Shown: positions 26,955 to 51,841, counted from the stretch's first letter. The stretch: DNA of 64,000 nt from an uncultured Elusimicrobiaceae bacterium (GCA_964417965.1 CAYQJX010000002.1:80486-144485); one strand, 5' to 3'. The notes: generated by a model from the letters alone, not told the origin. Translations and numbers: made by a program.

Positions 26955-27416
26955 TTGGACAACAGGATCGCAACCGTTAAGGTAGACCTTAAAAAATACA
27001 GCCTCGACGCCGCGCGCTACGCGGCCTACGCCCTGAGCGGCGAGGCTTTCGTTTTTATCAGCCGCGCCGGCGCCGCAGCCGTGGCCGTGTCGCTCTCGCC
27101 TAAAGGCGGCGGGTCCGGAGCCGCCCTGAAGGGCAAGTTCCTGGCGGAACTCGAGGATGAAAAACTGCGGGAAAAAATTGCCGCCGAGAACCGGGAGCTC
27201 AGGGAGTTCCTGACGCTGAAGGCGCTCTCCTCCCCGACCCCGGCCCCGGTCCCGGATTCCGGGCTTACCCCGGACCAGGAAAAAGAGCTGGCCGACCTTA
27301 TTTCCCAGGTCGAGAAAGAAATTAAAGAGGACGTCCGCGGAGGAGCCGCGGACCCGCTGGGGCTGACGAGCACTTGGGAAGACAAGTATGGCGCAAAAAA
27401 AGCCCGTAAAAAATAA
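26955..27416 (+). CDS. hxsD: HxsD-like small protein (copy 1)
   Basis: 153 aa. Contains KKYSLDAARYAAYALSGEAFVFI and FLAELEDEKLREKI..., which resembles the LLNDYxLRE-type signature I recall for HxsD. Overlaps the start of the HxsB-like gene. Confidence 0.55.
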   Translation: MDNRIATVKVDLKKYSLDAARYAAYALSGEAFVFISRAGAAAVAVSLSPKGGGSGAALKGKFLAELEDEKLREKIAAENRELREFLTLKALSSPTPAPVPDSGLTPDQEKELADLISQVEKEIKEDVRGGAADPLGLTSTWEDKYGAKKARKK

Positions 27417-28842
27417 GAAAACCGCCAGGACGCCCCTGGCCCGCTGGGAGCGGGTGGCCGGCGGCCGCCTGCTGACCAACGATTCCGGCTGTCACGCCCT
27501 GCTGGGCGAGAAGGATTTCGCGCGCGCCGTGGCCGGCGGCATTACCAAGAAGGACCCGCTTTTCAAGCGTCTTTCCGCCGCTGGCTTCATCAGGGAAAGC
27601 ATGGATTTCGAGGGCCTGGCCGCCAAGTGGCGCACCCTTAACGCCCACCTGGACCAGGGGCCCGGCCTGCACATCCTGGTGCTGACCCTCAGGTGCAACC
27701 ACAAGTGCCTCTACTGCCAGTCCAGCGCCGCCGGCGAGGGCGCCAAAAAGACGGACATGGACCGCAGGACCGCGCTGGCCAGCGTGGATTTCGCTTTCAC
27801 CTCCCCCAACCCGCTGATAACCATAGAATTCCAGGGCGGGGAGCCGCTGCTGAACTGGGAAGTGCTGAAGGCCGCCGTCAAGCGCGCCCGCGAAAAGGCG
27901 GCGGCTACCGGCAAGGAACTCAAGCTGGCGCTGGTCTCCAATTTTACCCTGATGACCGAGGAGAAGGCCCGCTTCCTCCTCGAGAACGAGGTCTCCATCT
28001 GCACTTCGCTCGACGGCCCGGCGGACCTGCATAACAGGAACCGGATCTTCGCCGGCGGCAACTCGCACGCCGCTACGGTGCGGTGGATAAAGTATTTCCA
28101 GGAAAAGCACGCGCGCCAGTCGCAGCCGTACCGGGTCTTCAAGCCCGGCGCGCTGCTCACCGTGTCCCGCCAGTCCCTGCCCCGCTGGAAGGAGATCATC
28201 GGCGAGTACGCCAGGCTGGGGCTGGAAGATATCTTCGTGCGGCCGCTGGCCCCGATCGGCTACGCCCGCGGCCTCTGGGACAAGATCGGCTATACGCCCG
28301 AGGAGTTCCAGGAATTTTACGGCCGCTGCCTGGACCATATCCTGGCCCTTAACCGCCGCGGCACGGTCATGCGCGAAAAAACCGCCGCCATGATGCTGGA
28401 GAAGATCGTCAACGCCACCGAGCCCGGCTACCTGGACGCGCGCTGCCCCTGCGGCGCGGCCATCGGCCAGGTCGCCTATAACTATAACGGCGACCTCTTC
28501 ACCTGCGACGAGGGCCGCATGGTCGGCTGGGAAGGCGACGATATTTTCCGCGTCGGCAACGTCTTCCGGGACAACCTGCGCAAAATTCTTTCTTCCCCGG
28601 CCGCCCGCGCCTGCGTGGTGGCCTCCAATCTTGAGGCCCAGCCCGAATGCTCGCGCTGCGCCTATAAGCCCTACTGCGGCGTCTGCCCCGTGTATAACTA
28701 CGAGGCGCAGGGCTCGCTGTGGGGCAACATGCGCTCCAACGGCCGCTGCCGGCTGTTCAAGGGCGTCTTCGCCGCTATTTTTGAAAGGCTGGGCAACGCC
28801 CGTGACAAGAAAGTGCTGGAGAGCTGGGTGGCAAAAAAATGA
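27388..28842 (+). CDS. hxsB: Radical SAM/SPASM maturase, HxsB-like (paralog 1)
   Basis: CNHKCLYC and FQGGEPLL. Full SPASM Cys set: CPCG...GDLFTCDEG...CSRCAYKPYCGVCPVYNY...GRC. ~95-aa N-terminal extension. Confidence 0.8.
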   Translation: MAQKKPVKNKKTARTPLARWERVAGGRLLTNDSGCHALLGEKDFARAVAGGITKKDPLFKRLSAAGFIRESMDFEGLAAKWRTLNAHLDQGPGLHILVLTLRCNHKCLYCQSSAAGEGAKKTDMDRRTALASVDFAFTSPNPLITIEFQGGEPLLNWEVLKAAVKRAREKAAATGKELKLALVSNFTLMTEEKARFLLENEVSICTSLDGPADLHNRNRIFAGGNSHAATVRWIKYFQEKHARQSQPYRVFKPGALLTVSRQSLPRWKEIIGEYARLGLEDIFVRPLAPIGYARGLWDKIGYTPEEFQEFYGRCLDHILALNRRGTVMREKTAAMMLEKIVNATEPGYLDARCPCGAAIGQVAYNYNGDLFTCDEGRMVGWEGDDIFRVGNVFRDNLRKILSSPAARACVVASNLEAQPECSRCAYKPYCGVCPVYNYEAQGSLWGNMRSNGRCRLFKGVFAAIFERLGNARDKKVLESWVAKK

Positions 28843-29156
28843 AAAAGCAGACTGACGCGAAAGAAATAACTTTTGATTCCGCTGTCTATTCTAAAGAGGC
28901 CGTAGAGCTGGCGGCCTATGTCTTTGCCGGGCGCTGCGGCGTAAAAGTTTCGCCCGGCAAGAGCGCTTCGGTCGCGCGGCTGTCCGGGGGCGCGGAGCTT
29001 GACCGGCTGGCCGGGGAGTTCGCCAACGAGGCGCTCAACCAGCAGTGCCGCATAGACCTGGCAAAAAAGAATTCCAAGCTGGCCGGCATGATAGTGACCA
29101 AGGCGCTGTTGTCGGCCTGCGGCGAAACCAAGCCGCGCTTACGGGGGAGCAAATGA
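28839..29156 (+). CDS. hxsD: HxsD-like small protein (copy 2)
   Basis: 105 aa. Contains DSAVYSKEAVELAAYVFAGRCGVKV and EFANEALNQQCRIDLAKKNSKLAGMIVTKAL, the same pattern as copy 1. ATGA overlap with the hxsB-like stop. Confidence 0.5.
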   Translation: MKKQTDAKEITFDSAVYSKEAVELAAYVFAGRCGVKVSPGKSASVARLSGGAELDRLAGEFANEALNQQCRIDLAKKNSKLAGMIVTKALLSACGETKPRLRGSK

Positions 29157-30217
29157 AAAAATCAGTGGTAATCGCTATCGTCGGGCTGCTGGCCCTGGTG
29201 CTGTTCCTGCAGTATCTGCAGAGGCGCAATGTCGCCCCCGCGCTGCCCGCCGGCCAGGCTACGCCCGCGGCCGAGGCTCCGGCGGGCATCCCCCTGCCGG
29301 CCGAGGCTACCGTCTACGCGGCCCAGCCTTCGCAGGAAACGCGGCCCTCGGCCCCGATAAAGGCCCCGCCCTCTTCTATCTTCAGAGCTCCGGCCGAGAT
29401 GGCCGGCGCCGGCCCGCTGCCCACCATCAACGCGGACTTCGCCCGCGCCCCGATAGGCTACACCGGCAAAACCCTCAACGGCATCCTCTCCTCCCACGGC
29501 AAGGTCTGGGGCAACGCCACCTTCGGCCCGGATGTCTTCACCAAGGAAGAGAACGACGCCCTCTACAGCCTGCTGGCCCAGTTCTTCTCCTGCAACGCCG
29601 TCGCCTACGGCGACCTGAACATGTGCAACTTCCTGCCGGGGGCGCTGACCAAGAAGGATAAATATTTCTGGAGCCCGCACTACGCGTGCATGGACCCCGC
29701 CAGCCGCGTGCTCTTCTACGCTTACGCCGCCGGCCGGTTCAACGTCAACGGCGAGTCGGTCTGCCGCAAGTATCTAGCGGGGGACAGCGTGGAAGGCGCC
29801 AAGGTGCCGCCGGAATTCTGCCGCGAGGTGTCCAAGGGTTTTTCTTATATCTGCGACATGGCCCCGGCCCGCGACCGGAGCCGCTGCCGCGAGGCGTTCC
29901 CCGCCGACAGCCGCAACTGCAGGACCCAGGACTGCATGGACAACAACAGGCTTTACCTCTCGCTCCGGGACAACAACATTTCCGCCTGCCCGGAGAAGTA
30001 CATGACGGAGTGCGGCGTTTTCTCCACCAAGTCCGGTTCGGTCTGCTCGCTCATACTCGACAAGATCGCCGGCACTTTCGCCCAGACGGAGGCGACGCAC
30101 GAGCAGAATATGAGCCCCGAGAAAAAGAAGCGCCTCGAAGAGGCCCGCAAGAAAGAAGAACAGAAAATAATAGAAGACGTGAACAAAAACGCCAGGAAGG
30201 CCTTGGGTAAGGATTGA
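29153..30217 (+). CDS. Membrane-anchored Cys-rich protein (12 Cys), unknown family
   Basis: The start at 29153 gives MKKSVVIAIVGLLALVLFLQYL (TM anchor). A Pro/Ala-rich linker follows, then a domain with 12 Cys (FFSCNAV, NMCNF, YACMD, SVCRK, EFCRE, YICDM, SRCRE, RNCRT, QDCMD, SACPE, TECGV, SVCSL). The tail is charged and helical. Confidence 0.7.
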   Translation: MKKSVVIAIVGLLALVLFLQYLQRRNVAPALPAGQATPAAEAPAGIPLPAEATVYAAQPSQETRPSAPIKAPPSSIFRAPAEMAGAGPLPTINADFARAPIGYTGKTLNGILSSHGKVWGNATFGPDVFTKEENDALYSLLAQFFSCNAVAYGDLNMCNFLPGALTKKDKYFWSPHYACMDPASRVLFYAYAAGRFNVNGESVCRKYLAGDSVEGAKVPPEFCREVSKGFSYICDMAPARDRSRCREAFPADSRNCRTQDCMDNNRLYLSLRDNNISACPEKYMTECGVFSTKSGSVCSLILDKIAGTFAQTEATHEQNMSPEKKKRLEEARKKEEQKIIEDVNKNARKALGKD

Positions 30218-30228: not shown

Positions 30229-30561
30229 ATGAAAAAGAAAAAACCCGGAGTAAAAAAGAACATAAAGCTCTTCCTCAACAGCGAAGAGGGGAAGATGCTC
30301 GACGCCGACATAGTGAAGGCCGGCCTCGCGCTGGGCATACTCGGCGCGGCGATGGTGGACCAGGCGAGCGCGCAGACCATCCACCAGAACTACTTCTACC
30401 CGCCGGCCGACCCGACCTCGCACGTCAGCCACCAGAGCCACGGCAGCCACGGCTCGCACGGCAGCCACGGCTCGCACGCCTCGCACGGCAGCCACGGCTC
30501 GCACGGCAGCCACGGCTCGCACGGCAGCCACGGCTCGCACGCCCGCGGCGGCTGGTGCTAG
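30229..30561 (+). CDS. hxsA: His-Xaa-Ser repeat protein (putative rSAM-modified precursor)
   Basis: RBS aaggag (30217-30222) precedes the ATG at 30229. The sequence reads MKKKKPGVKKNIKLFLNSEEGKMLDADIVKAGLALGILGAAMVDQASAQ, then TIHQNYFYPPADPTS, then 13 HxS triplets, then HARGGWC and stop. Confidence 0.9.
   Translation: MKKKKPGVKKNIKLFLNSEEGKMLDADIVKAGLALGILGAAMVDQASAQTIHQNYFYPPADPTSHVSHQSHGSHGSHGSHGSHASHGSHGSHGSHGSHGSHGSHARGGWC
30421..30543 (+). repeat. In-frame 9/18-nt tandem codon repeat encoding (His-Xaa-Ser)13
   Basis: The cacggcagc/cacggctcg units alternate Ser codons AGC and TCG. The 42-nt block cacggcagccacggctcgcacggcagccacggctcgcacgcc occurs twice (30439-30480 and 30502-30543). Confidence 0.95.
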
Positions 30562-30654: not shown

Positions 30655-30656
30655 CG

Positions 30657-31754
30657 ATGAACACCATCCCCCAGGAACTAGACATCTGCGTCTCCAACCA
30701 GTGCAATATGCGCTGCCGCTACTGCTATTCCGGCGGTCTCGACCGCTCGCGCGCGCAGCGGCTGGACCTGCGCCGGATGAAGCTGGCCGTGCTGCAGTAT
30801 CTGCGGGCCGCCGGCCCGCGGGCCGAGAAGATAAGCATCTCGGGCGGCGAACCGCTGCTGGACAAGAAGCTGCTGGCCGCGCTGCTGCCCTGGCTGCGGC
30901 GCACGGCCGGGCCGGCCATGGAAATAGAATGTTTTTCCAACGGCCTGCTGCTGGACCGCCCCACGGCGGAGCTGTTCCGCCGCAGCGGCGTGCACCTGAA
31001 GATAAGCCTGGACGGGGCGCCGGCCAGCCAGGACCTGAACCGCGTGGACGCCGGCGGCGCTCCGAGTTCCGCCCGGGTCGCGCGCAGCCTGAAGGCCCTG
31101 CCGCCCGGCCTGCGCCGGAGCCTCGGCCTCTCGGCCACCGTGACGCGCGCCACCGCGCCCCGGCTTGCCGAAAATATTAAATTCCTGGCTTCGCTCGGCG
31201 CCGGCGACCTGGGGCTGTCTTTCGCGGTGCAGGAGAGATGGACGCGCGCCGACCTGGCGGGCTTGAAGCGCGAGCTGCTCGCCGCCCGGGCCTGGCTTAA
31301 GGGCGCCGGCCGCGGGGCTTTCAAAGACAGCCCGAGGTTCGGCTACAAGCTCATGCGGGCGGGTAAGCCCTGGCTGGAGAGTTTCTGCGGCCAGGGCGAG
31401 ATCTCGATCGGGCCCGACGGCCATTTTTACCCCTGCTCCATGCTCTCCGCTTCCAGCGTGGCCCAGGAGCCGGCGCTGCGCGCCCGCTACGCGGCGGGCG
31501 ACTGGCGCACCGGCCCGGACCTCGCGAAGGTCAGGGCGTCCCGGGAAAAAATTTTCAGGGCGGTCATGGCCGGCGGGCGCCGCGAGTTCCTGGGCTGCCT
31601 GCTCTGCATCTATTACAGCAGCCTGCTGCACGGCGGAGACCTTAAAGCCATGCTGAAGAGCAGTACGGATATCGTCCGGCTGCTGCGCGCCACCGGGATG
31701 GGTTCAGGCAACCCGGACGTGCCGCGCCCCCGGCTGGCCGGGGCGGCCCGGTGA
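30657..31754 (+). CDS. Radical SAM enzyme, AslB-like with partial SPASM/twitch region (paralog 1 of 3)
   Basis: CNMRCRYC and ISGGEPLL. The C-terminal region has FCGQGEISIGPDGHFYPCSML and LGCLLC. Confidence 0.8.
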   Translation: MNTIPQELDICVSNQCNMRCRYCYSGGLDRSRAQRLDLRRMKLAVLQYLRAAGPRAEKISISGGEPLLDKKLLAALLPWLRRTAGPAMEIECFSNGLLLDRPTAELFRRSGVHLKISLDGAPASQDLNRVDAGGAPSSARVARSLKALPPGLRRSLGLSATVTRATAPRLAENIKFLASLGAGDLGLSFAVQERWTRADLAGLKRELLAARAWLKGAGRGAFKDSPRFGYKLMRAGKPWLESFCGQGEISIGPDGHFYPCSMLSASSVAQEPALRARYAAGDWRTGPDLAKVRASREKIFRAVMAGGRREFLGCLLCIYYSSLLHGGDLKAMLKSSTDIVRLLRATGMGSGNPDVPRPRLAGAAR

Positions 31755-33844
31755 AGGCCTCCGGCCGCCGCAAGTTCAGGGTGGTGCTCGTGCCGCCGCT
31801 GTGCGCGGACGGCCTGCTGCCGCTGGCCGCGGGCCTGCTGAAGGCCTGCGCCCTGCGCGATCCCTTCCTGCGTGAAAAAATAGAAATAACGATCCTGGAG
31901 CCCTGGGTGAGCGCGGAGGAGGCCCCGGGGCGCGTGGCCGCGCTGAAACCGGATCTGGCCGGCTTCACTGTCTATGGCGGTCTCGAGCTGAGCAGGCTGG
32001 CCGCGCGAGGCGTAAAGAAGCGCTGCGGCGCTAAAATAATTTTTGGCGGGCCGATGGCCGGGGCGGTGCCCCCGGAAGAACTTTTTGCGGGAGGCGTGGT
32101 AGACTACGCCGTGTCCGGGGAAGGGGAAAAAGCCTTCGTGGCGGTCCTGAAGGCCCTGCTGGGGCGGGGCGACCTCCGCGGCGTGGCCGGCCTGGCGTAT
32201 CGGGACGGGGGCAGCGTGGCCGTGAACCCTCCGGGCGAACCCGTGCGCGATCTTTCTTCGCTGCCTTCTCCCTACCTCGGCGGCGTTTTTAAATGGCGCC
32301 ATTACCCGCGCATCCCGTTTGAAACTTCCCGCGGCTGCCGCGGGACTTGCCTGTACTGCTCCATAACGCGGGATTACCGCGAATTCAGCCTGGCGAGGGC
32401 CAGGGCCGAGATCGGCCGCATCCTGCGCGATTTCCCCGGCCTGCGCACTCTTTTCCTGACGGACCCGGACCTTTGCCAGAACCGGGAGATGGCGGGGCTG
32501 CTGCGCCTGCTGGGAGGAGAGGTGTCGCGCCGCGGCGTCAACGTGGAGATACAGATGGACCTGCGCAATCTCGACGAGGGCGTGGTGCCGCTGCTCAACG
32601 ACAGGGCCTTCAGCCTGGGCGTGGGGGTGCAGAGCGTTTTCCCCGAAACCTGCCGGCTGATCGGGCGGCGCATGGACTTTGGCGAGCTCAGGCGCAAGAC
32701 CGCCCTGCTGGCGGCCGCGGCCCCGCGGGCCAAAGTGGTGCTGAGCTTCATCATCGGCCTGCCCGGCGACACCTATAAGCGCTGCCTGGCCAATTTCGAA
32801 TGGGGCCTTTCCGTGAACTCGGGGCTGTTCTTTCACCGCCTGCGCGTTTATCCGAGGAGCCCGCTGGGGAAAGCCGCCGGCCGGCTGGGCGTGAAGTTCT
32901 CCCCGCAGGACCCGTATTTCGTGGCCAGTGTGCCGTCGCTGCCAGCCGCCGGGGTGCGGCGGGCCTGCGCGCTGGCCAGGGAGCTCTCCCTGGCCGCCAA
33001 CCTCGCGTTCGCGGATAAGTATTTCGGCTTCCTGTTCCGCCATCTCGCGCGGGGGTTAGCCGGAGAATTTCCCGGGGTGGGGCTCTGCCGCCGCGTGAAC
33101 AGGCTGGCCAGGGCGGACAAAGGCATGGCGGCGGCCGCGGCGGCGGCGGATTCGTTCCGGGACGACGGGGACTGGTCGGGGCTGGATGTGAGCACTTTCA
33201 GGGAGCGCCGGGCCTGGCTGATAAGGGAGCTGGCCGGGCTGGAGCGAGGCTCCCGGCGGGCCTTCGCGTCGCGCTACGCCGGTTTCTGCGAGGCGCGCCT
33301 GGCGTGGGAGAAAGTGGACGGCGCTACCGCCGACAAGGTGCTGCGCCTGGCCGCCGGCGAGCGGCTCCGCGCGCCTTCCCTGCTGGTCTGCGGGGCGGCC
33401 TCCTCAGACCCGGCCCGCCTTTCCGCCTGCGGCTTTTCGCGGGAACTGCTGGTGGAAGAAAAATTCGGCTTTTTCCCTACCCCGCCGGCCCGGAACAGGT
33501 TTTACGCGGACAGGCCCGCCCTGCCGGAGGCCGCGGCCGCGGTTCTTAAAGGAAGCGTCCGCTTCCGGAGCGTAGTCGTTTCGCAGGTGCTCAGCGCCCT
33601 GCCAGCGGCCGGGCGGGTCGGCCTGCTCAGGCGCCTGCTGGGCTCGGCCGGTTTCGCCGCTAAATTACTCATTATCGACAGCGGCCTGGGCTATCCTGAA
33701 TTCGGGCCCGGCTGGGAACTGACCGGGAGCTGGACGGAATGCGCGCGGGAAACCATTGAAAACGACCTCCGGTCGGCCGGCTGGCGCCTTACCAGGACGG
33801 TGCCGCTCGGCAAGTGGAGCGTCTTCTGCGCCGAGCGGGCCTGA
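31751..33844 (+). CDS. B12-binding-domain radical SAM enzyme with an extra C-terminal (methyltransferase-like?) domain
   Basis: N-terminal B12-binding-type region (FRVVLVPP...IIFGGPMAG...DYAVSGEGE) and TSRGCRGTCLYC. 697 aa. The C-terminal ~200 aa contain VVVSQVLSALP...LLIIDSG. Confidence 0.8.
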   Translation: MKASGRRKFRVVLVPPLCADGLLPLAAGLLKACALRDPFLREKIEITILEPWVSAEEAPGRVAALKPDLAGFTVYGGLELSRLAARGVKKRCGAKIIFGGPMAGAVPPEELFAGGVVDYAVSGEGEKAFVAVLKALLGRGDLRGVAGLAYRDGGSVAVNPPGEPVRDLSSLPSPYLGGVFKWRHYPRIPFETSRGCRGTCLYCSITRDYREFSLARARAEIGRILRDFPGLRTLFLTDPDLCQNREMAGLLRLLGGEVSRRGVNVEIQMDLRNLDEGVVPLLNDRAFSLGVGVQSVFPETCRLIGRRMDFGELRRKTALLAAAAPRAKVVLSFIIGLPGDTYKRCLANFEWGLSVNSGLFFHRLRVYPRSPLGKAAGRLGVKFSPQDPYFVASVPSLPAAGVRRACALARELSLAANLAFADKYFGFLFRHLARGLAGEFPGVGLCRRVNRLARADKGMAAAAAAADSFRDDGDWSGLDVSTFRERRAWLIRELAGLERGSRRAFASRYAGFCEARLAWEKVDGATADKVLRLAAGERLRAPSLLVCGAASSDPARLSACGFSRELLVEEKFGFFPTPPARNRFYADRPALPEAAAAVLKGSVRFRSVVVSQVLSALPAAGRVGLLRRLLGSAGFAAKLLIIDSGLGYPEFGPGWELTGSWTECARETIENDLRSAGWRLTRTVPLGKWSVFCAERA

Positions 33845-33867
33845 ACGCCAGATTTGATAATATTTGA

Positions 33868-35208
33868 ATGATGAAAAAAAGAGCAGTCAAAAACGGCCCC
33901 GCCGCCTTGCCCGAGAAGGCCGGAGTGGTAATTCTGGGCGCCGGCCTTACCGGCCTGATCGCCGCCCGCGAACTGCTGCGGGCCGGCAGGCGGGACGTCC
34001 TGCTGCTCGAGCGGGACTCCAGGCCGGGCGGCCTGATGAAGACCAACCGCTCCGGCGGGGTGACGATAGACGAGCTGCCGCACGTTTTCTTTACCAGGAA
34101 CAAGCGCGCCGCCGGCGTCTTCAGGGAACTTTCCGGCCCGGTCTATTCGCACCGCCACCGGCTCGGGGTCATGTGGAAGGGCGGCTGGGTGGATTTCCCT
34201 TTCCAGGACAACATCCACCAGCTTTCGCCCGGCGACAGGCGCCGGGTGCTGGTGAGCCTGCTGGAGAACCGGGCCGGCGGCCCCGCGCGGGAGCCCCGCA
34301 ACCTGGAGGAGTACGCCTTGCGCGAGCTGGGCGGCGGCATAACCGAACTTTTTTTCCGGCCTTATAACGAGAAGCTGTGGCAGACCCCGCTGGCCGGCAT
34401 GAGCTACGCCTGGCTCGCCGCCAAGATCCGCCTGCCCGGCCCGGCCGGTCTGGCCGAAAGCATCCTCGGCGTCAAACCGGCCTCCCGCGGCGACGTCGCG
34501 CCCCACGCGGAATTCGTCTACCCTAGGACCGGGGGCATCGAGGGCGTGATAGAAAGCCTGCTGAAAGAGATAAGCCCCGTTTCGCCGCTCTGCGGCACCG
34601 AGGTGACCGGCATAGACGCGCGGCGCAAGACCGTGCTGACCTCCCGAGGCCCCGTGCGCTACGGGCGGCTCATCTCCACGCTGCCGCTGGACAGGGCCGT
34701 CGCGCTGGCCGGTCTGAAGAACTGCCGCCCGGTCCTGCCGCGCCTGCGCGCCACGCGGGTGCTGTGCCTGCATTACGCCCTCTCCGCCGTGAACCTGCCG
34801 CCCTACCACTGGATCTACGTGCCGGACCCTGACCTGCCTTTCTACCGCCTGACCCGCGCCGACCTCATAAACCCGCGCGCCGTGCCCGGCGGCAAGGCCC
34901 TGATAGTGGAGTGCGCGCTGCCCGGCGCCAGTGCCGCGGCGCCGGCCGGCCTGCAGGCCCGCGTCACCGCGGCCCTGCTGCGTTTGGGGATAATAAAGAA
35001 GAAAGACCTCAGGGGCGTCTGGGCCTACGACCATTGCCCCGCCTACCCGGTGCCGCACGCGCGCCACGCCGAAGATACGGCCGCCTGCCTGCGTTCCCTG
35101 GCCCGGGCCGGGATAATCTCGGCCGGGCGCTTCGGCGAATGGGCCGTCTACAACATGGACCACAGCATCGAGGCCGGCATAGCCGCCGCGGGAAAGATCC
35201 TGAAATGA
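33868..35208 (+). CDS. FAD-dependent oxidoreductase (UDP-galactopyranose mutase / PPOX-like fold)
   Basis: Dinucleotide-binding motif in VVILGAGLTGLIAARELLRAG...LLLERDSRPGGL. PHVFFT and FFRPYNEKLW resemble UGM/amine-oxidase motifs. Confidence 0.75.
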   Translation: MMKKRAVKNGPAALPEKAGVVILGAGLTGLIAARELLRAGRRDVLLLERDSRPGGLMKTNRSGGVTIDELPHVFFTRNKRAAGVFRELSGPVYSHRHRLGVMWKGGWVDFPFQDNIHQLSPGDRRRVLVSLLENRAGGPAREPRNLEEYALRELGGGITELFFRPYNEKLWQTPLAGMSYAWLAAKIRLPGPAGLAESILGVKPASRGDVAPHAEFVYPRTGGIEGVIESLLKEISPVSPLCGTEVTGIDARRKTVLTSRGPVRYGRLISTLPLDRAVALAGLKNCRPVLPRLRATRVLCLHYALSAVNLPPYHWIYVPDPDLPFYRLTRADLINPRAVPGGKALIVECALPGASAAAPAGLQARVTAALLRLGIIKKKDLRGVWAYDHCPAYPVPHARHAEDTAACLRSLARAGIISAGRFGEWAVYNMDHSIEAGIAAAGKILK

Positions 35209-44797: not shown

Positions 44798-44866
44798 GCG
44801 CCGAGGCCGAGGGACGAGCGGCGGGCACGGTGTGTCCCGACCGCGTGTTTTGCGTTCCGGCCCCCG
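44751..44866 (+). repeat. Structured repeat family, copy C (116 nt)
   Basis: Closing stem cgggggccgg (44751-44760) / ccggcccccg (44857-44866). gttagcaaaac/gttttgcgttc and the cores gcttgcgtaagcgc and gggcacggtgtg align to the reverse complement of copy A. The stem differences are compensatory. Confidence 0.75.
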
Positions 44867-44897
44867 TGGCGCCAGGCAGACGGTTAGAGATTTATCA

Positions 44898-45980
44898 ATG
44901 AAGTTTAACAAGGAAATACTGAAGTTCAAGATAGCCGTCACTTCGGGCTGCTGCCTGAGGTGCACGCATTGCTTTATAGACAAGAGCCGCACCGAGACCA
45001 TCCCCGCTCCCGCCGCGCTGAAAGCCGTGGAGACCTTCCTGCGCTCCCCCGGCAAGACCAAGACCCTGGAAATTTACGGCGGCGAGCCGCTGATGGAATT
45101 CGAGCTGGTAAAGAAGATCGTAACCGCCGCCCGCGCGCTCGCGAAAAAACTCGGTAAGACGCTCGCCGTCTCCGTGGCCAGCAACGGCGTGCTCGCCGGC
45201 GCCGAGCAGCTGGACTGGCTGGCCCCCCGCGGCGTCCGCTTCGCCGTCAGCTTCTCCGGCAGCGGCCGCAGCCACGACCTGTCGCGCAAATTTGTTTCCG
45301 GCAAAGGCTCGCACGCCGCAGTAGAAAAGAAAATACCGCTCTTCCTCTCCAAGCTGGGAGAGGATCTCCACGTCATACTCTGCGTGCATCCGCGGCGCGC
45401 CGCGGCCGCGTACCAGGATTTCCTGCGCCTGGCCGCGGACGGCTTCCGCAATATCGGCATAGAATGTGTGCACGGCTTCCCCTGGCGGGCCGCCGACTAT
45501 AAAGCTTTCGGGGCAGCCATGAAGAAGATAACCGCCTATACCCTGGCGCATGCGGGGGACAAGTCCCCCGTGGTGCTGGAGCCGCTGCTGGAATTCCTCA
45601 GGGACAAAGAATTCAAAAATAGCTTCTGCCCTTTTCTGCGCGACCTGGAGCTGTTCCCCGACGGCACCCTCTCTTTCTATCCTTACCCTTTCCTGCGCAC
45701 TCCCGCGGAGCGCAAGGCCGCGGCCATCGGCACGGCTGAAGGGTGGGTGGCTGAAAAATATGTTTCCTGCGCCCCGGCCGCCGGTTCGCGCCGCTGCCTG
45801 GCCTGCGCCCGCTCCTATTACCGCCTGCCCGGCCTGGCCGACGGCAGCCGCGCCCACGCCCTGCGCACGGAAGTCTGCCGCGCCGCCGCGGAGGAGCTGG
45901 TGCGCAGGTCCGCCGCCGAGCCAGGCCTGAAAGCCTACCTGAAGCGGCTGATAAAACTTTTCAAGAAGGGTTACATCTGA
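44898..45980 (+). CDS. Radical SAM enzyme, AslB-like (paralog 2 of 3)
   Basis: The start at 44898 gives MKFNKEILKFKIAVTSGCCLRCTHC. Also YGGEPLMEF. The C-terminal Cys are CAPAAGSRRCLAC. The upstream part of the track ORF is encoded by the repeat. Confidence 0.75.
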   Translation: MKFNKEILKFKIAVTSGCCLRCTHCFIDKSRTETIPAPAALKAVETFLRSPGKTKTLEIYGGEPLMEFELVKKIVTAARALAKKLGKTLAVSVASNGVLAGAEQLDWLAPRGVRFAVSFSGSGRSHDLSRKFVSGKGSHAAVEKKIPLFLSKLGEDLHVILCVHPRRAAAAYQDFLRLAADGFRNIGIECVHGFPWRAADYKAFGAAMKKITAYTLAHAGDKSPVVLEPLLEFLRDKEFKNSFCPFLRDLELFPDGTLSFYPYPFLRTPAERKAAAIGTAEGWVAEKYVSCAPAAGSRRCLACARSYYRLPGLADGSRAHALRTEVCRAAAEELVRRSAAEPGLKAYLKRLIKLFKKGYI

Positions 45981-47371
45981 TGGCGAAGAGGGACGACCGC
46001 CCCATGGACTTCAACTTCGCCCGCCGCGGCGGAGGCAGGCTGCTGTCCAACGACTTTTCCATGACCGCGGAGCTGACAGCCGCGGGGTTGGCCCGTTTCG
46101 CCAGCGGCGCGGCCCTGCCGCCCGCCATGGATAAAGCGCTGGAGGCCAAAGGTTTCTTCGCCGGACGGCTGGATTTCGCCAGGCTGCTGCCGCGGCATTT
46201 CGCGGCCCTGCTGGCAGATTGGAAAGGCCCTAAAGTGCATATCGTAGCCGTGACCGCCGCCTGCGACCACGCCTGCCTTTATTGCGGCGCCTCGTCCGGC
46301 TCCGGCGGGCGTCACATGAGCCGCGCGACGGCTAAAAAAACGCTGGATTTCATCTTCAGCACCGGCGCGCCGGAGCTGGTTATAGAGTTCCAGGGCGGTG
46401 AACCCCTCCGCAATTTTGAAGTGGTGAAGTATCTGGTCGGGGAGGCCAAACGCCTCGCGGCGCGGCAGGGCCGCGGCCTGCATTTCTCCATGGTCTCCAA
46501 CCTGGCCGGGCTTACTTCGGAGAAGCTGGCTTTTCTTGCCGCTAACGGGGTTACGCTCTGCACCTCTCTCGACGGCCCCGCGGCTATCCATGACCGCGGC
46601 CGCAAATATTCCGGCGGTTCCAGCCACGCCGCCGCCGTCCGCGGTATAGCCCTGGTGCAGAAACTCGCGGCGGCCGGGGAGCTGGAATCTCTTAACGCCA
46701 TCTGCACCATCACTAAGTATTCCCTGGCGCAGCCGAAGGCAATAGTGGACGAATTTTTAAAGCGCGGCGTAAAGCGCGTGCAGCTGGGCCCGCTGGAGCC
46801 CATTGGCCGCGCCGCCCGCGCGGGCCTGGGCGTGACCCCGGAAGAATTCCTCGCTTTCTACGCCGAAGCCCTGGAGTACATGCTGCGCCTGAACCGGAAG
46901 GGCGTGGAGGTGTACGAGAAGGGCGCGCTGATGTTCCTGGGTCAGATGCTCGGCGGCGAACGCCCGCGCTACCAGAACCTGGACCTGCTCTACCGGCTGG
47001 CCTACGGGCCGGACGGTTCCGTCTACGGCTCCGACGAGGCGCGCCTGCTGGCCGCCGGCGGCAACGAATTTTTCAGGCTGGGGTCCGTGGCGGACTCTTT
47101 CTGCTCGCTGGCGTCCTCCCCGCTGGGCCGCACGCTGATCCTTTCCTGTTTTCCGCGGCTGACGCAGCCGCGCTGCGCGCGCTGTCCGCACAGCGCCTGG
47201 TGCCGGGTGTCCCCGGTGTATAACCACGCGGCGCAGGGCGGTTTCTGGGGCGACATGATGACCAACGGCCGCTGCCGGGTCTTCATGGGCGTCTCGGACC
47301 TGCTGCTGGAGAAACTGAAGACCCCGGCGTCGCGGAAAATACTGGAAGGCTGGGCGGAGAAATATCAATGA
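45980..47371 (+). CDS. hxsB: Radical SAM maturase, HxsB-like (paralog 2, degenerate SPASM)
   Basis: CDHACLYC and FQGGEPLRNF. In the C-terminal region several SPASM Cys present in paralogs 1 and 3 are replaced (NLDLLY for CPCG, GSDEA for TCDEG, CRVSP for CGVCP). Confidence 0.75.
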   Translation: MAKRDDRPMDFNFARRGGGRLLSNDFSMTAELTAAGLARFASGAALPPAMDKALEAKGFFAGRLDFARLLPRHFAALLADWKGPKVHIVAVTAACDHACLYCGASSGSGGRHMSRATAKKTLDFIFSTGAPELVIEFQGGEPLRNFEVVKYLVGEAKRLAARQGRGLHFSMVSNLAGLTSEKLAFLAANGVTLCTSLDGPAAIHDRGRKYSGGSSHAAAVRGIALVQKLAAAGELESLNAICTITKYSLAQPKAIVDEFLKRGVKRVQLGPLEPIGRAARAGLGVTPEEFLAFYAEALEYMLRLNRKGVEVYEKGALMFLGQMLGGERPRYQNLDLLYRLAYGPDGSVYGSDEARLLAAGGNEFFRLGSVADSFCSLASSPLGRTLILSCFPRLTQPRCARCPHSAWCRVSPVYNHAAQGGFWGDMMTNGRCRVFMGVSDLLLEKLKTPASRKILEGWAEKYQ

Positions 47372-49530
47372 AGGCCGCTATGGACATAGAAAGGCTGCTG
47401 GCCTGCGCCGACAGGGACTCCCTGCCGGAGGCTCCGCCCAACTACCCGCCCATGGCGGCCTGGCCGGAGCTGCGCGGCACGGAGAAAATAATTTCAGCCT
47501 GGCGGCGTTCCCTCAAATCCGACGGCGGCCGCAGGCCCGTGGTCTACGTGCACGTGCCTTTCTGCGAAACCCTCTGCCGCTTCTGCGGCTTCTATAAACT
47601 CCCGGCCGCGCCCGGCGCGGTAGACCGCTTCCTGGACGCGCTGGAGAAAGAAATAAAGCTCCTGGGGCCGCTCTTCAAGGGCCGTCCGCTCAGGTTCCTG
47701 TGCATAGGCGGCGGCACGCCCAGCCTGCTGACCATAGCGCAGCTGGACCGGATGTTTAAAATGCTGCGGGCTTATTTTAAAGTCACGCCCAAGACCCGCA
47801 TAGCCTTCGAGGCCAGCCCGAATACGCTGGACCCGGAGAAGCTGGCCTTCCTGAAGTCCGCCGGCGTGGAATGGCTGGCCATCGGCGTGCAGAGCTTCGA
47901 CCCCGCCCTGCTTAAAGGCCTCAACCGCCGCCAGGACCCGGCGCAGACGGTGGCGGTTATAAAGCAGGCCAAGGCCGCCGGCATAAAGCAGGTGGAGGTG
48001 GACCTGATGACCGGCCTGCCGGGCCAGACCGGTGAAAGTTTTCTGCGGGACGTCCGCACCGCGGCCGGGCTGGACGTGGAACGCGTCTATCTTTTCGATT
48101 TCCAGCCGCGCTGCGGCACCTCCGCCGGCGAGCAGGCCGGCTCGCTCAAGCGCGGCGCGCTGGAGGACGCCAGGGCCTGGCGCCGCCGGGGCATGGATAT
48201 TTTAGTGTCGAAGGGTTATAAAATGCGCTGTGGGCACTGGGTTTACAAGCGCAAGGGCGACTGGTGGCCCTACAGCTACGACCAGGGCGAGGAAGGGTCC
48301 TACTCGGTGCTCGGCCTGGGGCCCAGCGCCGTGTCCTACGCCATGAACGCCGCCCGCTACCGCAGCGTTTCCGACGAGAAGGTTTATGAGAGGACGCTGG
48401 CAGGCGGCGCGCTGCCGCCCGCCGCGGGCTGCCTGCTGAGCCAGCGCGACGAGATGGTGAACTTCGTGCTGCTCGACGCCCTGCACCGCGGGCAAGTCGA
48501 TAAGAGAAATTTCCGCCGCCGTTTCGGCCGTGGCCTGGCCGAGGTCTTTGGCGGCGAGATAAAGGCCGCCAAGGCGGCCGGTCTGGCCGCCGACTCCGGC
48601 CGGGCGCTGCTGGTGACGGACAGGGAGCGGGCCACGGTGGAGCTGCGCGGCGCGCTGTACTCCCCGGAGGTGCTGGAGCGCCTGTCGAAAATTTACGGCC
48701 GCGGGAACGCTCCCGGGCATGAGCGGCCCGCGGCCGCACCCCCGGCCTTCAACCGGCAGGCGGAGCACACTCATGAATGCCGCCTGCAGGCAGGGGCGCT
48801 GGAGGCGCTGCTTTACGGCGCGTCCCCCGGGCCGGCCAGGGCGGGCAGGGACCTGGCCCTGGAGCTGCTGCGGGCCGCACGGGCGGGGAGGAAAGAAGCC
48901 CTGCTGCTCTCGGGCGCGGCTTTGCCCGGCCTGGCCGAGATAGAGGCGGCGCGCTACGCGGCCGGAGCCGGTTTTAAAAATATTTCGCTGTTCTCCCGCC
49001 TGCCGGCCGGGGCTGATTTCTTCAGGAACCTGAAGGCCGCCGGGGTTTCCGGTTTTCTCTTCAGGTTCGGAGCTGTTGTGTCCAGGGAAGAGCTGGCCGC
49101 CGTGAAGGCCGCCGCCTCCTCCGGGCTGGAGGCCAGTGGCGTCTACGTGCCGGGCTCGGCGGCCTCCCGGGGCGCTCCCGCAGCCATGAAAAAACTTTCT
49201 GCGGCCGGAGCCGCCGGGTTTATAGTCTCCTTTCCGGAGGGCAAGGAGAATATAACCGCCGATTACGCGGCTCTCGTGCCGCTGGCGCGCGCCGCTGGCC
49301 GGCTGGGCGCGAGCTTCCTCCGGGCCCCGCTCTGCGTGCTGTACCCGGACTGGGAGCGCTCGCTGGACTGCCTCAGGGGCGGCCAGGGCGATGCCCGCGA
49401 ATCCGGCGGCAGCGCCGGGGCGGTAAAGCCCAAGCTCTGCCTGCAGTGCCGGTTCCTGCTCAAATGCCCCGGCCCGGCGCTCGGCTACGCCGAGAAATTC
49501 GGTTTCAGGGGACTTAAGACCATCAAATGA
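47368..49530 (+). CDS. Fusion of a HemN-like radical SAM domain with a degenerate HxsC-like domain lacking CxxxCxxC
   Basis: The N-terminal half has VYVHVPFCETLCRFCGFYK and LCIGGGTPSLLT. The C-terminal half aligns to the HxsC-like paralogs (LLLSGAALPGLAEIEAARYAAGAGFKNISLFSRLPAG...) and ends CLQCRFLLKCPGPALGYAEKFGFRGLKTIK. Confidence 0.75.
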   Translation: MKAAMDIERLLACADRDSLPEAPPNYPPMAAWPELRGTEKIISAWRRSLKSDGGRRPVVYVHVPFCETLCRFCGFYKLPAAPGAVDRFLDALEKEIKLLGPLFKGRPLRFLCIGGGTPSLLTIAQLDRMFKMLRAYFKVTPKTRIAFEASPNTLDPEKLAFLKSAGVEWLAIGVQSFDPALLKGLNRRQDPAQTVAVIKQAKAAGIKQVEVDLMTGLPGQTGESFLRDVRTAAGLDVERVYLFDFQPRCGTSAGEQAGSLKRGALEDARAWRRRGMDILVSKGYKMRCGHWVYKRKGDWWPYSYDQGEEGSYSVLGLGPSAVSYAMNAARYRSVSDEKVYERTLAGGALPPAAGCLLSQRDEMVNFVLLDALHRGQVDKRNFRRRFGRGLAEVFGGEIKAAKAAGLAADSGRALLVTDRERATVELRGALYSPEVLERLSKIYGRGNAPGHERPAAAPPAFNRQAEHTHECRLQAGALEALLYGASPGPARAGRDLALELLRAARAGRKEALLLSGAALPGLAEIEAARYAAGAGFKNISLFSRLPAGADFFRNLKAAGVSGFLFRFGAVVSREELAAVKAAASSGLEASGVYVPGSAASRGAPAAMKKLSAAGAAGFIVSFPEGKENITADYAALVPLARAAGRLGASFLRAPLCVLYPDWERSLDCLRGGQGDARESGGSAGAVKPKLCLQCRFLLKCPGPALGYAEKFGFRGLKTIK

Positions 49531-50423
49531 AACGCATCGACATAAAGATCGGCTTCGGCTGCAACAACATGTGCGATTTCTGCGCGCAGGGCTCCAAGCG
49601 TTATAAGGGCCCGGGCAAAAGCCTGGCCGAGATAAAGGCCGCGCTGGCGCGCGCCCGCAAGACCGGCGTGAACGCCGTGGTGTTCACCGGCGGCGAACCC
49701 ACCATCCACCCGGACCTGCTCGCCGCGGTAAAGGCCGCCAGGAAGATGGGCTACGACACCGTGCAGGTGCAGACCAACGGCCGCCGCTTCGCCTATTACG
49801 ATTATTGCCTGGCGCTCAAGAAGGCCGGCGTCACCGAGATGGGCCCTTCGCTGCACGGCTCCACGGCCGCCATCCACGAGGGCCTGACGCACGCCGAGGG
49901 CAGCTTCAAAGAAGGGGTGCAGGGCATCCTCAACTGCAAGAAGCTCGGCATGTACGTGCTGACCAATTCCGTGATCACCTCCCGCAACTACAAGGACCTG
50001 CCGGCCCTGGCCAAGCTGCTGGCGTACCTGAAGGTGGACCAGTTCCAGTTCGCCTTCGTGCACCTGGTCGGTTCCGCCTGGGAGAACCGCAAGTGGCTGA
50101 CGCCCAAAATGACGGCCGCGATGCCGTATATAAAAAAAGCGCTCGACGTGGGCCGCGCGGCCGGCCTGCACTGTTACACCGAAGCGATACCTTACTGCCT
50201 GATGAAAGGCTACGAGGACTGCGTAGCCGAACAGGTGATCCCCGAAGGCCCGGTGGCCGACGCGGACCTGTACATCGAGAGCTACGGCGACTACCGCCGC
50301 GGCGAGGGCAAAGTCAAAAGGGCCGAGTGCAAAAAGTGCGGCTGGTTCAAAGCCTGCGAGGGCCCCTGGCGCGAATACCCCGAGCTTTACGGCTGGAGCG
50401 AATTTAAACCGGTGAAGAAATGA
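49527..50423 (+). CDS. Small radical SAM enzyme, HxsC-like paralog 3 of 7
   Basis: CNNMCDFC, GGEPTIHPD, SLHGSTAAIHEGLTHAEGSF, CKKCGWFKACEGPWREYPELYGWSEFKPVKK. Confidence 0.85.
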   Translation: MKRIDIKIGFGCNNMCDFCAQGSKRYKGPGKSLAEIKAALARARKTGVNAVVFTGGEPTIHPDLLAAVKAARKMGYDTVQVQTNGRRFAYYDYCLALKKAGVTEMGPSLHGSTAAIHEGLTHAEGSFKEGVQGILNCKKLGMYVLTNSVITSRNYKDLPALAKLLAYLKVDQFQFAFVHLVGSAWENRKWLTPKMTAAMPYIKKALDVGRAAGLHCYTEAIPYCLMKGYEDCVAEQVIPEGPVADADLYIESYGDYRRGEGKVKRAECKKCGWFKACEGPWREYPELYGWSEFKPVKK

Positions 50424-51841
50424 AAAAGCCTAACCCCTGCGAACCTTTCGACCTGCGCTTCGAGCGCGACGGCGCCGGCTATATCGTCTCCGGCCCGGCC
50501 GGCGCCGCGCTGAGGCTCACCGCGGCGGAATTCTCCGCCTTCAAAGCGGGTAAGACCAGGGACGGATCGCCCCTGTATAAAAAGCTGGCGGCCGCCGGGC
50601 TGCTGCGCGGCCGGCTGGACCTGGACGGCGTGACCGCCGGCCTGGCCAAACTTTCCGCCGGAGTTTTCGCCGGCCCGGGCCTGCATATCCTGGTGCTGAC
50701 GCTCAAGTGCAACCACGCCTGCGTGTACTGCCGCGCCACCGCCGGCGGTACCGGCGACACGGCCATGAGCCGGAGCACCGCGCTGCGCTCGGTCGAGACC
50801 GCTTTCCAGTCTCCCAATCCCAGGATCTCCATAGAATTCCAGGGCGGCGAAGCCCTGCTCAACTGGGAAGTGCTCAAAGCCGCCGTCGCGCACGCCAAAA
50901 AGCTTAACCTCAAGGCCGGCAAGGACTTGGCGCTTTCCGTGGTCACCAACCTCAGCCTGATGGACGAGGCCAAGGCCCGCTGGCTGGTACAAGAAGGCGT
51001 GTCGGTGTGCACCTCGCTCGACGGCCCTGCCGCCATCCATGACGCCAACCGGCGCTGGTCCGGCGGTTCTTCCCACGCCAGGGCGGTGCGCTGGCTCAAG
51101 TATTTCAAGGACGCGGCGGCCCGCGGCGGCGGCAAAGATTCGCTGCCCTCGGCGCTGATGACCACTACCCGGCTCTCGCTCGCCAATCCCCGCGCGATAG
51201 TGGACGAATACCGCGCCCTCGGCCTGGGCGGCATCTTCCTGCGCCCGCTGTCGCCTATCGGCTACGCCGCCGGCGTCTGGCCGGACATCGGCTACGCCCC
51301 CGGCGATTTCATAAAGTTCTACCGCGCCGCCATGGCGCGGGTGCTGGAGATAAACCTCTCCGGAGAGAAGTTCGTGGAGCGCAACGCGGCCCTGCTGGGA
51401 GCCAAGCTGCTGCGCGGCGAGGACCCCAACTTCCTGGACCTGCGCTCGCCCTGCGGCGGAGCTATCGGCCAGCTGGCTTACAACTACGACGGGGACGTGT
51501 ACACCTGCGACGAGGGCCGCATGCTGGCGGCCTGCGGCGACCCGTTCTTCAGGCTGGGCAGCGTGCATAAGAATTCTTTCCCCGAGCTGATGACGGCCCC
51601 GGCGGCCCGCGTCTGCGCCATGGCCTCCTGCCTGGAGAACCAGCCGTACTGCGCCCGCTGCGCCTTCAAGCCTTTCTGCGGCGTCTGCCCCGTGCACAAC
51701 TACGCCACGCAGGGCTCGCCCTGGGGGGACATCCGCGGCGGCGGCTGGTGCGAGCTGCAGAAGGGGATGTTTAAAACCGTTTTCGCCCTGCTGGAGAACA
51801 GGAAGAGCCGCAAGGTCATAGAGAGCTGGCTGGAAAAGTGA
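50420..51841 (+). CDS. hxsB: Radical SAM/SPASM maturase, HxsB-like (paralog 3)
   Basis: CNHACVYC and FQGGEALLNWEVLKAAV. Full SPASM set: SPCGG...GDVYTCDEG...CARCAFKPFCGVCPVHNY. Long identical runs with paralog 1 (GPGLHILVLTL, LNWEVLKAAV, CTSLDGPA). Confidence 0.85.
   Translation: MKKPNPCEPFDLRFERDGAGYIVSGPAGAALRLTAAEFSAFKAGKTRDGSPLYKKLAAAGLLRGRLDLDGVTAGLAKLSAGVFAGPGLHILVLTLKCNHACVYCRATAGGTGDTAMSRSTALRSVETAFQSPNPRISIEFQGGEALLNWEVLKAAVAHAKKLNLKAGKDLALSVVTNLSLMDEAKARWLVQEGVSVCTSLDGPAAIHDANRRWSGGSSHARAVRWLKYFKDAAARGGGKDSLPSALMTTTRLSLANPRAIVDEYRALGLGGIFLRPLSPIGYAAGVWPDIGYAPGDFIKFYRAAMARVLEINLSGEKFVERNAALLGAKLLRGEDPNFLDLRSPCGGAIGQLAYNYDGDVYTCDEGRMLAACGDPFFRLGSVHKNSFPELMTAPAARVCAMASCLENQPYCARCAFKPFCGVCPVHNYATQGSPWGDIRGGGWCELQKGMFKTVFALLENRKSRKVIESWLEK

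Follow-up and report, generated by a model that had tools for sequence, protein, structure and literature searches.

Three HxsB-family genes in a radical-SAM-rich locus

The window analyzed here, a stretch of 64,000 nucleotides from an uncultured Elusimicrobiaceae bacterium (GCA_964417965.1, CAYQJX010000002.1:80486-144485), contains a locus rich in radical S-adenosylmethionine (SAM) enzymes, which spans 26099 to approximately 57000 (~30 kb) and includes three genes of the HxsB family. The middle one, here termed P2, is not a decaying copy but belongs to an orthologous group that is stable, and in its cluster complement it is ordinary for HxsB. The order along the locus is a 273-aa protein, an HxsD-like protein, the first HxsB (P1), a second HxsD-like protein, a Cys-rich 354-aa protein, an HxsA4-type precursor, an accessory block and a run of 12 genes that holds P2 and the third HxsB (P3). 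Between 27388 and 57000 there are 16 radical-SAM genes, namely the three HxsB-type genes, one HxsC-like, five HxsC4-like, two HemN-like, two B12-binding and three other SPASM-like versions.

The three HxsB-like open reading frames (ORFs), P1 (27388..28842; 484 aa), P2 (45980..47371; 463 aa) and P3 (50420..51841; 473 aa, directly upstream of the HxsC-like gene), all lie on the plus strand where a preliminary description of this DNA had placed them. They show coding-type GC content at third codon positions (GC3 of 0.81–0.87, in a window of ~65% GC) and have TIGR03978 (HxsB) as the best family over their full length, with the next family at 92–134 bits. P1 and P3, both of the full-SPASM type, score 469.6 and 432.6 bits with this model, for which the cut-off is 370. 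The top match of P2, at 312.6 bits, is ahead of every other family by more than 220 bits, yet falls under this equivalog cut-off. The E-values for the trio, 1e-93 to 1e-140, rule out chance as the source of these similarities. All three match the Pfam Radical_SAM domain (PF04055; 49.1, 39.7 and 39.1 bits in P1, P2 and P3, respectively), and the SPASM domain (PF13186; cut-off 21.5) is detected at 27.4 bits in P1 and at 21.8 bits in P3, with no match in P2. Pairwise identity is 49% between P1 and P3 and 39% between P1 and P2. The short strings by which the three proteins had been recognized (GPGLHILVLTL, LNWEVLKAAV, CTSLDGPA, FQGGE(P/A)L, CPCG/SPCG, TCDEG, CxRCxxKPxCGVCP, NLDLLY, GSDEA, CRVSP and CDHACLYC) were all recovered. 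The genomic associations typical of HxsB are also seen, in the form of an HxsA4 above its cut-off together with two HxsD-like proteins and one HxsC-like protein, all below theirs, the gene order being D-B1-D-x-A ... B2 ... B3-C and not the canonical D-B-C-A.

Cysteine ligands and predicted cluster complement

To map the cysteines, P1 and a profile of 58 P2-type sequences were aligned to anSME (4K37) and CteB (5WGG), and both alignments agree. According to Goldman et al. (2013), the ligands of the first auxiliary cluster (Aux I) of anSME are C261, C276 and C330 and those of the second (Aux II) C317, C320, C326 and C348; these positions are consistent with the numbering of residues in the alignment. 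The radical-SAM cluster (RS) of P1 is represented by C103, C107 and C110. Its SPASM region (28444..28749, plus strand; aa 353-454) contains all seven motif cysteines, of which C355 in the CG loop, C373 in the TCDEG motif and C433 in the GVCP motif align to the Aux I ligands C261, C276 and C330, and C421, C424, C430 and C454 to the Aux II ligands C317, C320, C326 and C348. The SPASM region of P3 (51452..51751, plus strand; aa 345-444) has an equivalent set, with C345, C363 and C423 at the Aux I positions and C411, C414, C420 and C444 at those of Aux II.

The RS motif of P2 (46262..46285, plus strand), C95-x3-C99-x2-C102 (CDHACLYC), is invariant in 74 of 74 P2-type sequences and is followed by the FQGGEP SAM motif. 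In the former Aux I hairpin (46955..47059, plus strand; aa 326-360) the CG loop with its cysteine has been removed by a 5-residue deletion, and TCDEG has become GSDEA, which places S351 at the position of the cysteine while the following Asp-Glu pair is kept. The third Aux I cysteine is replaced by serine in the CX2CX5C run (47174..47212, plus strand; C399-x2-C402-x5-C408-R-V-S411), where GVCP has become RVSP. The first three Aux II ligands, C399, C402 and C408, are retained in this run, and the fourth, C432 (47273..47275, plus strand), is the equivalent of C348 of anSME. Counted against the seven-cysteine SPASM motif (CX9-15GX4C - gap - CX2CX5CX2-3C - gap - C), P1 and P3 each have seven of seven and P2 has four of seven.

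The loss in P2 is not scattered, in that on the alignment exactly the Aux I ligands are removed and exactly those of Aux II are spared. The preliminary description had correctly noted that P2 lost auxiliary-cluster ligands with its SAM-cluster motif intact. P2 is predicted to be a two-cluster enzyme with RS and Aux II and devoid of Aux I, and P1 and P3 are predicted to have retained the ancestral full SPASM complement of RS, Aux I and Aux II. No more than three of the Aux I cysteines are universally conserved in P1 and P3, which suggests an open coordination site comparable to that of CteB. As a fourth Aux I ligand we considered C409 of P1, which is lost in P2; it is conserved in 92% of the full-type proteins of Elusimicrobia and is replaced by V, L, M or I in many other full-type proteins, and it was rejected.

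A further possibility is that P2 holds a third metal center near the old Aux I site by means of C242, C390, the Asp-Glu pair, or His or Cys residues of the precursor. A cysteine census of 74 P2-type sequences uncovered no replacement ligand set of the kind envisaged in the preliminary description; the only additional conserved cysteines are C242 (93%, in the P2-type alone) and C390 (54%). The conservation of these two, the persistence of the Asp-Glu pair after the lost cysteine in all types, and the His-rich, Cys-terminated nature of the precursor would favor such a center. Against it, no trio of conserved ligands is seen, C242 resides on a strand of the barrel outside the SPASM hairpin, the CG loop is deleted, and the third position varies among S, P, M, G and Q. 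Hence, we regard a third center as quite improbable. Cys242 (46703-46705) lies on a β-strand of the barrel at a position occupied by Leu or Met in the full-SPASM type, and might possibly be a hydrogen-atom donor or a compensatory change.

Conservation and selection of the P2-type

A search with P2 recovered 120 homologues, nearly all from metagenome-assembled genomes of Elusimicrobia. About 75 of these, with identities from 90% down to ~40%, show the Aux I-less pattern of P2, and 40 have the full set of cysteines. The pattern at the three Aux I positions is a deletion, then Ser (rarely Gly or Ala), then Ser, Pro, Met, Gly or Gln. Every full-length homologue with this pattern has preserved both the four Aux II and the three RS cysteines, and none of these ligands is missing in any of the 74 P2-type sequences. 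The columns that are invariant in the 58 aligned P2-type sequences are the RS cysteines, Y101, E136-F-x-G-G-E-P142, C194/S196/D198, H204, R208 and the four Aux II cysteines, and they include the CxxxCxxC motif, the GGE motif, the ribose motif and the Ser and Asp of CTSLDG.

When P2 is compared with an orthologue of 90% identity from Elusimicrobia bacterium GWB2_63_22 (locus L006; loci with L-numbers are related loci that were compared with that of the window), the ratio of non-synonymous to synonymous substitution rates (dN/dS) is 0.17 overall and 0.16 in the C-terminal domain. The 35 residues of the former Aux I hairpin show zero non-synonymous changes at a dS of 0.28, and against a 73% identical orthologue the ratio is 0.25. 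We consider it probable that the Aux I site of P2 was lost long ago and that the protein has since been selectively maintained in its Aux I-less state.

These observations bear on the view that P2 is a decaying duplicate, under relaxed selection or on the way to becoming a pseudogene, in which cysteines erode at random. It is true that P2 alone of the three lacks a Pfam SPASM match and scores under the NCBIfam cut-off. This has to be set against an intact ORF with coding-type GC3, orthologues from 90% to ~40% identity that share the same pattern, dN/dS values of 0.17–0.25, and the loss of only the Aux I ligands with Aux II and RS complete in every P2-type sequence. A decaying duplicate is effectively refuted by this conservation, and we accord it a negligible probability. 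The earlier portrayal of the cysteines of P2 as "eroded" is not supported, because the loss is an ancient and clean one of Aux I only, is invariant across a large clade, and is accompanied by purifying selection.

Comparison with the prototype proteobacterial HxsB

The reference for HxsB was provided by PGAP-annotated proteins from five plasmid-borne hxsD-B-C-A or hxsA2 operons of Aeromonas, Acidiphilium, Paraburkholderia, Klebsiella and Agrobacterium, in which the three Aux I positions read CSN, MSD, ASD, SSD and NTD, respectively. In all five the RS triad is complete, as is the Aux II quartet. Likewise, all 120 recovered homologues of the Acidiphilium protein (66–100% identity, many of them named HxsB by JGI or NCBI) lack the Aux I cysteines and mostly have A-S-D/E in their place, and two of the 120 show a single substitution outside the Aux I positions, which in one case affects an RS position and in the other an Aux II position. 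The full cysteine set had previously been assumed to be the norm for HxsB; the aligned proteobacterial sequences do not support this assumption. As the prototype is of the Aux II-only form, it is the full-SPASM proteins P1 and P3 that represent the departures from it.

The HxsB of the HXS antiphage system is said to have "two 4Fe-4S cluster domains" and is needed in vivo in the proteobacterial system; the substitutions C98A/C101A abolished the processing of HxsA and C399A/C402A reduced it (Li et al., Nat Commun 2026, PMC13128918). The cysteines of Klebsiella HxsB, at 94/98/101 and 399/402/408/432, match the numbering of these mutants. Among the products of proteobacterial HxsB, HxsC and HxsD are a change of +8 Da at an SHRSS motif and N-terminal processing. 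On the basis of the aligned ligands, the predicted cluster complement of P2, RS with Aux II, is that of this experimentally required prototype.

Several further features are shared with the prototype, namely the assignment of all three paralogs to HxsB as the top family, the association with homologues of HxsA, HxsC and HxsD, and an SDEAR motif at the position of the lost hairpin cysteine in P2. There are also clear differences. Identity to the prototype is only 22–37%, with P2 below the curated cut-off, and the full SPASM cysteine set of P1 and P3 is not found in the prototype. The locus of the window contains three HxsB-type and ~13 other radical-SAM genes against one B and one C in the prototype system. 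The precursor here is of the HxsA4-type with 13 HxS repeats (mostly SHG) and an RGGWC tail, whereas the prototype precursor has 5 repeats and a peptidoglycan-binding domain. A scan with PADLOC 2023, which contains no HXS model, recovered only a generic similarity to pVip or viperin-like radical-SAM proteins.

Phylogeny of the HxsB family

In neighbor-joining (NJ) trees (100 bootstraps), for which the remaining SPASM-like radical-SAM proteins of the window served as the root, the HxsB family is monophyletic in 89–98% of the bootstraps. Within the family the three proteins of the window are placed apart from one another, P1 and P3 each in its own clade of positional orthologues (84% and 95%, respectively) and P2 in an Aux I-less Elusimicrobia clade (56%). 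The earlier suggestion of paralogy stands to the extent that the three are homologues within one family; they are not recent paralogs but represent three orthologous groups of old origin, each of which is conserved among Elusimicrobia.

Other, well-supported clades without Aux I are an N/Y-type (100%) and an A-S-E type (100%) of Elusimicrobia, a myxobacterial G-S-Q type (100%), a group with ASS, GCP or GCA (99%), and the Aux I-less Proteobacteria (98%), which are nested in a clade containing Myxococcota and CPR members (88%). The full cysteine set agrees with the consensus of the SPASM superfamily and by parsimony would be the ancestral state, and Aux I was probably lost independently at least three times, and by the NJ topology five or more times. 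The deep nodes of the tree are weakly supported, and the claim is therefore held to at least three losses, with five or more by topology. Among the 120 homologues of P2 and 122 ORFs derived from the related loci, with ORFs truncated before the motif excluded, the deviations at the Aux II positions are limited to a Cys-to-Asp change in L064 and a very divergent ORF of 233 bits in L047.

Two loci of another Elusimicrobia lineage, L017 (6128-7357) and L018 (6049-7278), encode HxsB-like proteins of 409 aa which have lost the cysteines of the CxxxCxxC motif and keep the four Aux II cysteines. They adjoin two Aux I-less HxsB genes and are candidate pseudo-radical-SAM members of the family.

Predicted structure and the N-terminal domain

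The AlphaFold2 (AF2) models are confident ones, with pLDDT values of 91.7 for P2 and 88.8 for P3. The best Foldseek matches of the P2 model are CteB and anSME (E-values of 5e-19 to 2e-16, TM-scores of 0.63–0.70), and at the level of the fold the model shows the features of SPASM, with a hairpin (E339-342/E347-349) followed by helices.

The N-terminal domain of P2 (45980..46234, plus strand; aa 1-85) has a predicted β3-α3, RRE-like topology, the elements assigned by DSSP on the AF2 model being E11-16, E19-24, E29-33, H34-41, H48-56 and H66-77. The same order of three strands and three helices, which is that of the RRE, is predicted for the N-terminal ~85–95 residues of both P2 and P3, and the whole-chain Foldseek match of P2 with the RRE-bearing CteB covers 473 columns, the RRE included. 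At the sequence level, a Pfam scan of the three HxsB ORFs gave no PqqD match and a profile of 16 N-terminal domains run against the PDB found no RRE. The proposal that these domains could be RRE-like peptide-recognition modules is compatible with the predicted topology and with the match to CteB, and finds no confirmation in these sequence searches.

The preservation of this putative peptide-binding domain in a protein that has discarded Aux I, and that is the farthest of the three from the HxsB model (312.6 bits), could be taken to mean that P2 is a non-catalytic subunit which holds the peptide or acts as a scaffold, as had been suggested in the preliminary description. Such a role is difficult to reconcile with the invariance of the CxxxCxxC, GGE and ribose motifs across 58–74 sequences and with a dN/dS of 0.14 in the radical-SAM core. 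In the prototype HxsB, which has the same complement, the RS cysteines are required in vivo (Li et al. 2026, PMC13128918), and the candidate pseudo-SAM relatives in L017 and L018 look otherwise in that they have dispensed with those cysteines. Taken together, these points make a non-catalytic P2 very unlikely.

The conserved trio and its precursor across Elusimicrobia

In many genomes of Elusimicrobia a conserved gene order is encountered, which can be written as [273-aa]-HxsD-B(full)-HxsD-[Cys-rich]-HxsA4 ... B(Aux I-less) ... B(full)-HxsC-[membrane protein]-rSAM x3 ... SufS (rSAM, radical SAM). The trio of full, Aux I-less and full HxsB is complete in L004, L008, L011, L012, L014, L015, L019 and L021, that is, in at least eight other genomes, with the Aux I-less version as the middle member. 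All taxonomically labelled P2-type loci belong to Elusimicrobia.

The HxsA4-type precursor of the window (30229..30561, plus strand; NF038313, 67.1 bits against a cut-off of 55) has an N-terminal signal or transmembrane segment, 13 His-Xaa-Ser repeats (mostly SHG) and the C-terminal sequence HARGGWC, and a six-frame repeat scan identified it as the sole ORF with HxS repeats in the window. A family scan of the precursor returned only HxsA4/HxsA3 and a sub-threshold match to a collagen repeat, with no peptidoglycan-binding domain detected. A precursor with an RGGWC tail, ending in H[AS]RGGWC, is present in 12 of 12 loci that have a P2-type gene; other loci have precursors ending in HGSW, HGQW, HGSY or HCRGGWC[CN]PRC, and the number of SHG-type repeats ranges from 7 to 37 across loci. 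The P2-type gene is immediately downstream of hxsA4 in 6 loci. No consistent correlation, of a kind that would agree with thiolate ligation as in CteB, was observed across the loci between the presence of full-type, Aux I-bearing HxsB and cysteines of the precursor, and it is the RGGWC tail alone that tracks the trio-type loci.

These contextual associations are pertinent to the alternative that P2 acts on a substrate other than HxsA4, such as the Cys-rich secreted protein, the 273-aa protein, a small molecule or a tetrapyrrole. P2 is flanked by HemN-like and B12 radical-SAM genes, there is one HxsA for 16 radical-SAM genes, and loci of this kind have been linked to tetrapyrrole chemistry (Méheust et al. 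2020). On the other side, the modeled RRE-like domain would point to a peptide, the P2-type adjoins hxsA4 in the 6 loci mentioned above and is invariably accompanied by a precursor with the RGGWC tail, and compact loci that keep the P2-type have no HemN-like or B12 genes. Nitrogenase-like paralogs were looked for in the window and none were found, which likewise counts against a different substrate. On balance, we consider this alternative unlikely.

Functional interpretation

The explanation that we favor, and consider likely to be correct, is that the trio represents three old HxsB orthologous groups in an Elusimicrobia hxs-type locus which matures a secreted poly(Ser-His-Gly) HxsA4, and that P2 is a catalytically competent two-cluster enzyme. 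Membership in the HxsB family, the ligand map, the conservation, the selection and the synteny are direct observations; the occupancy of the clusters, the substrate and the chemistry are inferred. In the proposed mechanism, the N-terminal RRE-like domain would dock the leader of HxsA4, the RS cluster would cleave SAM, and the resulting 5'-deoxyadenosyl radical would take a hydrogen from a residue of the HxS repeats. With Aux I absent beside its active site, P2 would carry out a step which can do without a proximal electron sink or substrate-ligating cluster, and hence no thiolate ligation in the style of CteB, and its Aux II could serve as a structural anchor or as a surface site of electron entry. 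P1 and P3 would probably perform the steps that use Aux I.

Certain points weigh against this interpretation. P2 scores under the NCBIfam cut-off for HxsB (312.6 against 370), and the P2-type clade has an NJ bootstrap of only 56%. The assignment of its clusters derives from aligned ligands. The distance that separates Aux II from the RS cluster in anSME, ~27 Å, is too great for direct transfer, and therefore a redox role for Aux II in a protein devoid of Aux I is not obvious. Finally, the assignment of HxsA4 as the substrate of P2 is circumstantial because the locus has as many as 16 radical-SAM genes and also encodes further possible substrates, namely the Cys-rich 354-aa and the 273-aa proteins.

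A wider proposal, which we offer as a tentative possibility and do not favor at present, is that the HxsB family has repeatedly discarded Aux I and never Aux II, and that a single poly(SHG) precursor is acted on by the members of the trio one after another, as part of a line of 16 radical-SAM enzymes that would yield a heavily modified and possibly metal-binding secreted peptide of a hitherto undescribed kind. If this were true, the trio would constitute a natural system that separates Aux I, with its role in chemistry, from Aux II, with an indispensable structural or electron-entry role.

Among other SPASM enzymes, the closest parallel is the Aux II-only subgroup of AhbD, in which only Aux II is conserved, and most AhbDs of non-methanogens have Ser/Ser/Glu for the Aux I cysteines (Fix et al. 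2023, PMC10452713). As in HxsB, with A/S-S-D/E, and in P2, with a deletion and two serines, the Aux I cysteines are replaced and the CX2CX5C...C pattern is kept; in contrast, AhbD belongs to an unrelated clade and acts on Fe-coproporphyrin III. No Aux II-only AhbD had been studied biochemically according to Fix et al. (2023, PMC10452713), and what Aux II does in SPASM enzymes continues to be called unclear (Balo et al. 2021). CteB (5WGG/5WHY) and anSME (4K36-4K39) are the best structural matches (Foldseek TM 0.66–0.70). CteB shares with the HxsB trio the layout of an N-terminal RRE or RRE-like domain followed by radical-SAM and SPASM domains, and with P1 and P3 the three universal Aux I cysteines. 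Both CteB and anSME bind Aux I and Aux II, unlike P2, and identity to them is 16–18%. The Twitch or T-SPASM enzymes (BtrN, MoaA, SkfB and EpeE) are also radical-SAM proteins with one auxiliary cluster, and represent the inverse situation, as a Twitch domain corresponds to a C-terminally shortened SPASM with a cluster at the Aux I position only, whereas P2 and the prototype HxsB are full length and have the ligands of the Aux II position instead. P2 consequently does not fall under the Twitch definition.

Radical-SAM-rich loci linked to nitrogenase paralogs have been reported in groundwater Elusimicrobia, in a study that includes no Hxs analysis (Méheust et al. 2020). New in the present work are the recognition of HxsB as natively Aux II-only, with Aux I probably lost repeatedly and independently, the retention of full-SPASM and Aux I-less versions of HxsB together in one Elusimicrobia locus, and the size of that locus. 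Missing SPASM cysteines, it follows, need not signal decay. The trio provides matched enzymes for a direct comparison of the full and Aux I-less forms, and the locus, with its 16 radical-SAM genes and (SHG)n precursor, makes this uncultured phylum a place where new peptide chemistry may be found.

Neighboring genes and other features of the window

The locus begins with the 273-aa protein (26099-26920), which has an N-terminal transmembrane segment, ends in VCCRII, has no family assignment and is syntenic in related loci. It is followed by the first HxsD-like protein (26955..27416, plus strand), which scores 41.8 bits with TIGR03976, below the cut-off of 50, and whose syntenic orthologues are matched by Pfam HxsD; this ORF overlaps the start of P1 (27388) by 29 nt. 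Downstream of P1 are the second HxsD-like protein (28839..29156, plus strand; TIGR03976, 36.8 bits, and NF038315, 30.5 bits, both below cut-off) and the Cys-rich 354-aa protein (29153..30217, plus strand), a secreted or membrane-anchored protein of unknown family that is likewise syntenic in related loci. The 273-aa and the Cys-rich proteins, which flank P1, could be further substrates or partners.

The accessory block (30657..42595), absent from the compact locus L004, encodes a radical-SAM protein, two B12-binding radical-SAM proteins, an FAD oxidoreductase, an NDP-sugar transferase, a GT2 protein, a beta-propeller, a TPR protein and a HemN-like protein. The run of 12 co-directional genes beyond it (42669..57000, plus strand), 11 of them radical SAM, has the order HxsC4-like (two genes), radical SAM, P2, HemN-like, HxsC4-like, P3, HxsC-like, membrane protein, HxsC4-like, radical SAM and HxsC4-like. 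These genes mostly overlap or are at most 2 bases apart, most junctions overlapping by 1–8 nt, which suggests translational coupling. The HxsC-like radical-SAM protein (51843..52736, plus strand; TIGR03977, 161.6 bits, below the cut-off of 267.9) forms a B-C pair with P3. The conserved membrane protein between it and the next radical-SAM gene (52733-53884, plus strand) has a sub-threshold match to the prepilin peptidase family A24 (22.7 against 26.5 bits), and could be a protease for the N-terminal processing of the precursor.

After the radical-SAM block, the region 59233-63117 contains a SufS-type cysteine desulfurase, which occupies a similar place in L004, L008, L013 and L015, followed by a TPR protein and a YgeY-family hydrolase linked to selenium metabolism (574 bits). 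Directly upstream of the hxs-type locus, at 23541-26015, are PhoH2 (PIN and PhoH domains) and then a secreted barnase-family ribonuclease with a barstar, a flank that is also present in L005, L012 and L016. Bases 1-23400 encode BamA, Skp, LpxD/C/A/I/B, FabZ, MsbA and other housekeeping proteins. Within this segment, a purine riboswitch of the 2'-dG-II class (RF03165; 84.9 bits, gathering threshold 60) is located at 5095-5165 on the minus strand, upstream of two minus-strand ORFs. One (4444-5025) is for a secreted protein of 193 aa, and the other (3693-4643) for a membrane protein with multiple passes that by eye resembles CPBP/CAAX proteases. The riboswitch lies inside an island at 3100-5300 with a GC content of 0.52–0.53 against ~0.65 elsewhere, which suggests that this island is acquired DNA.

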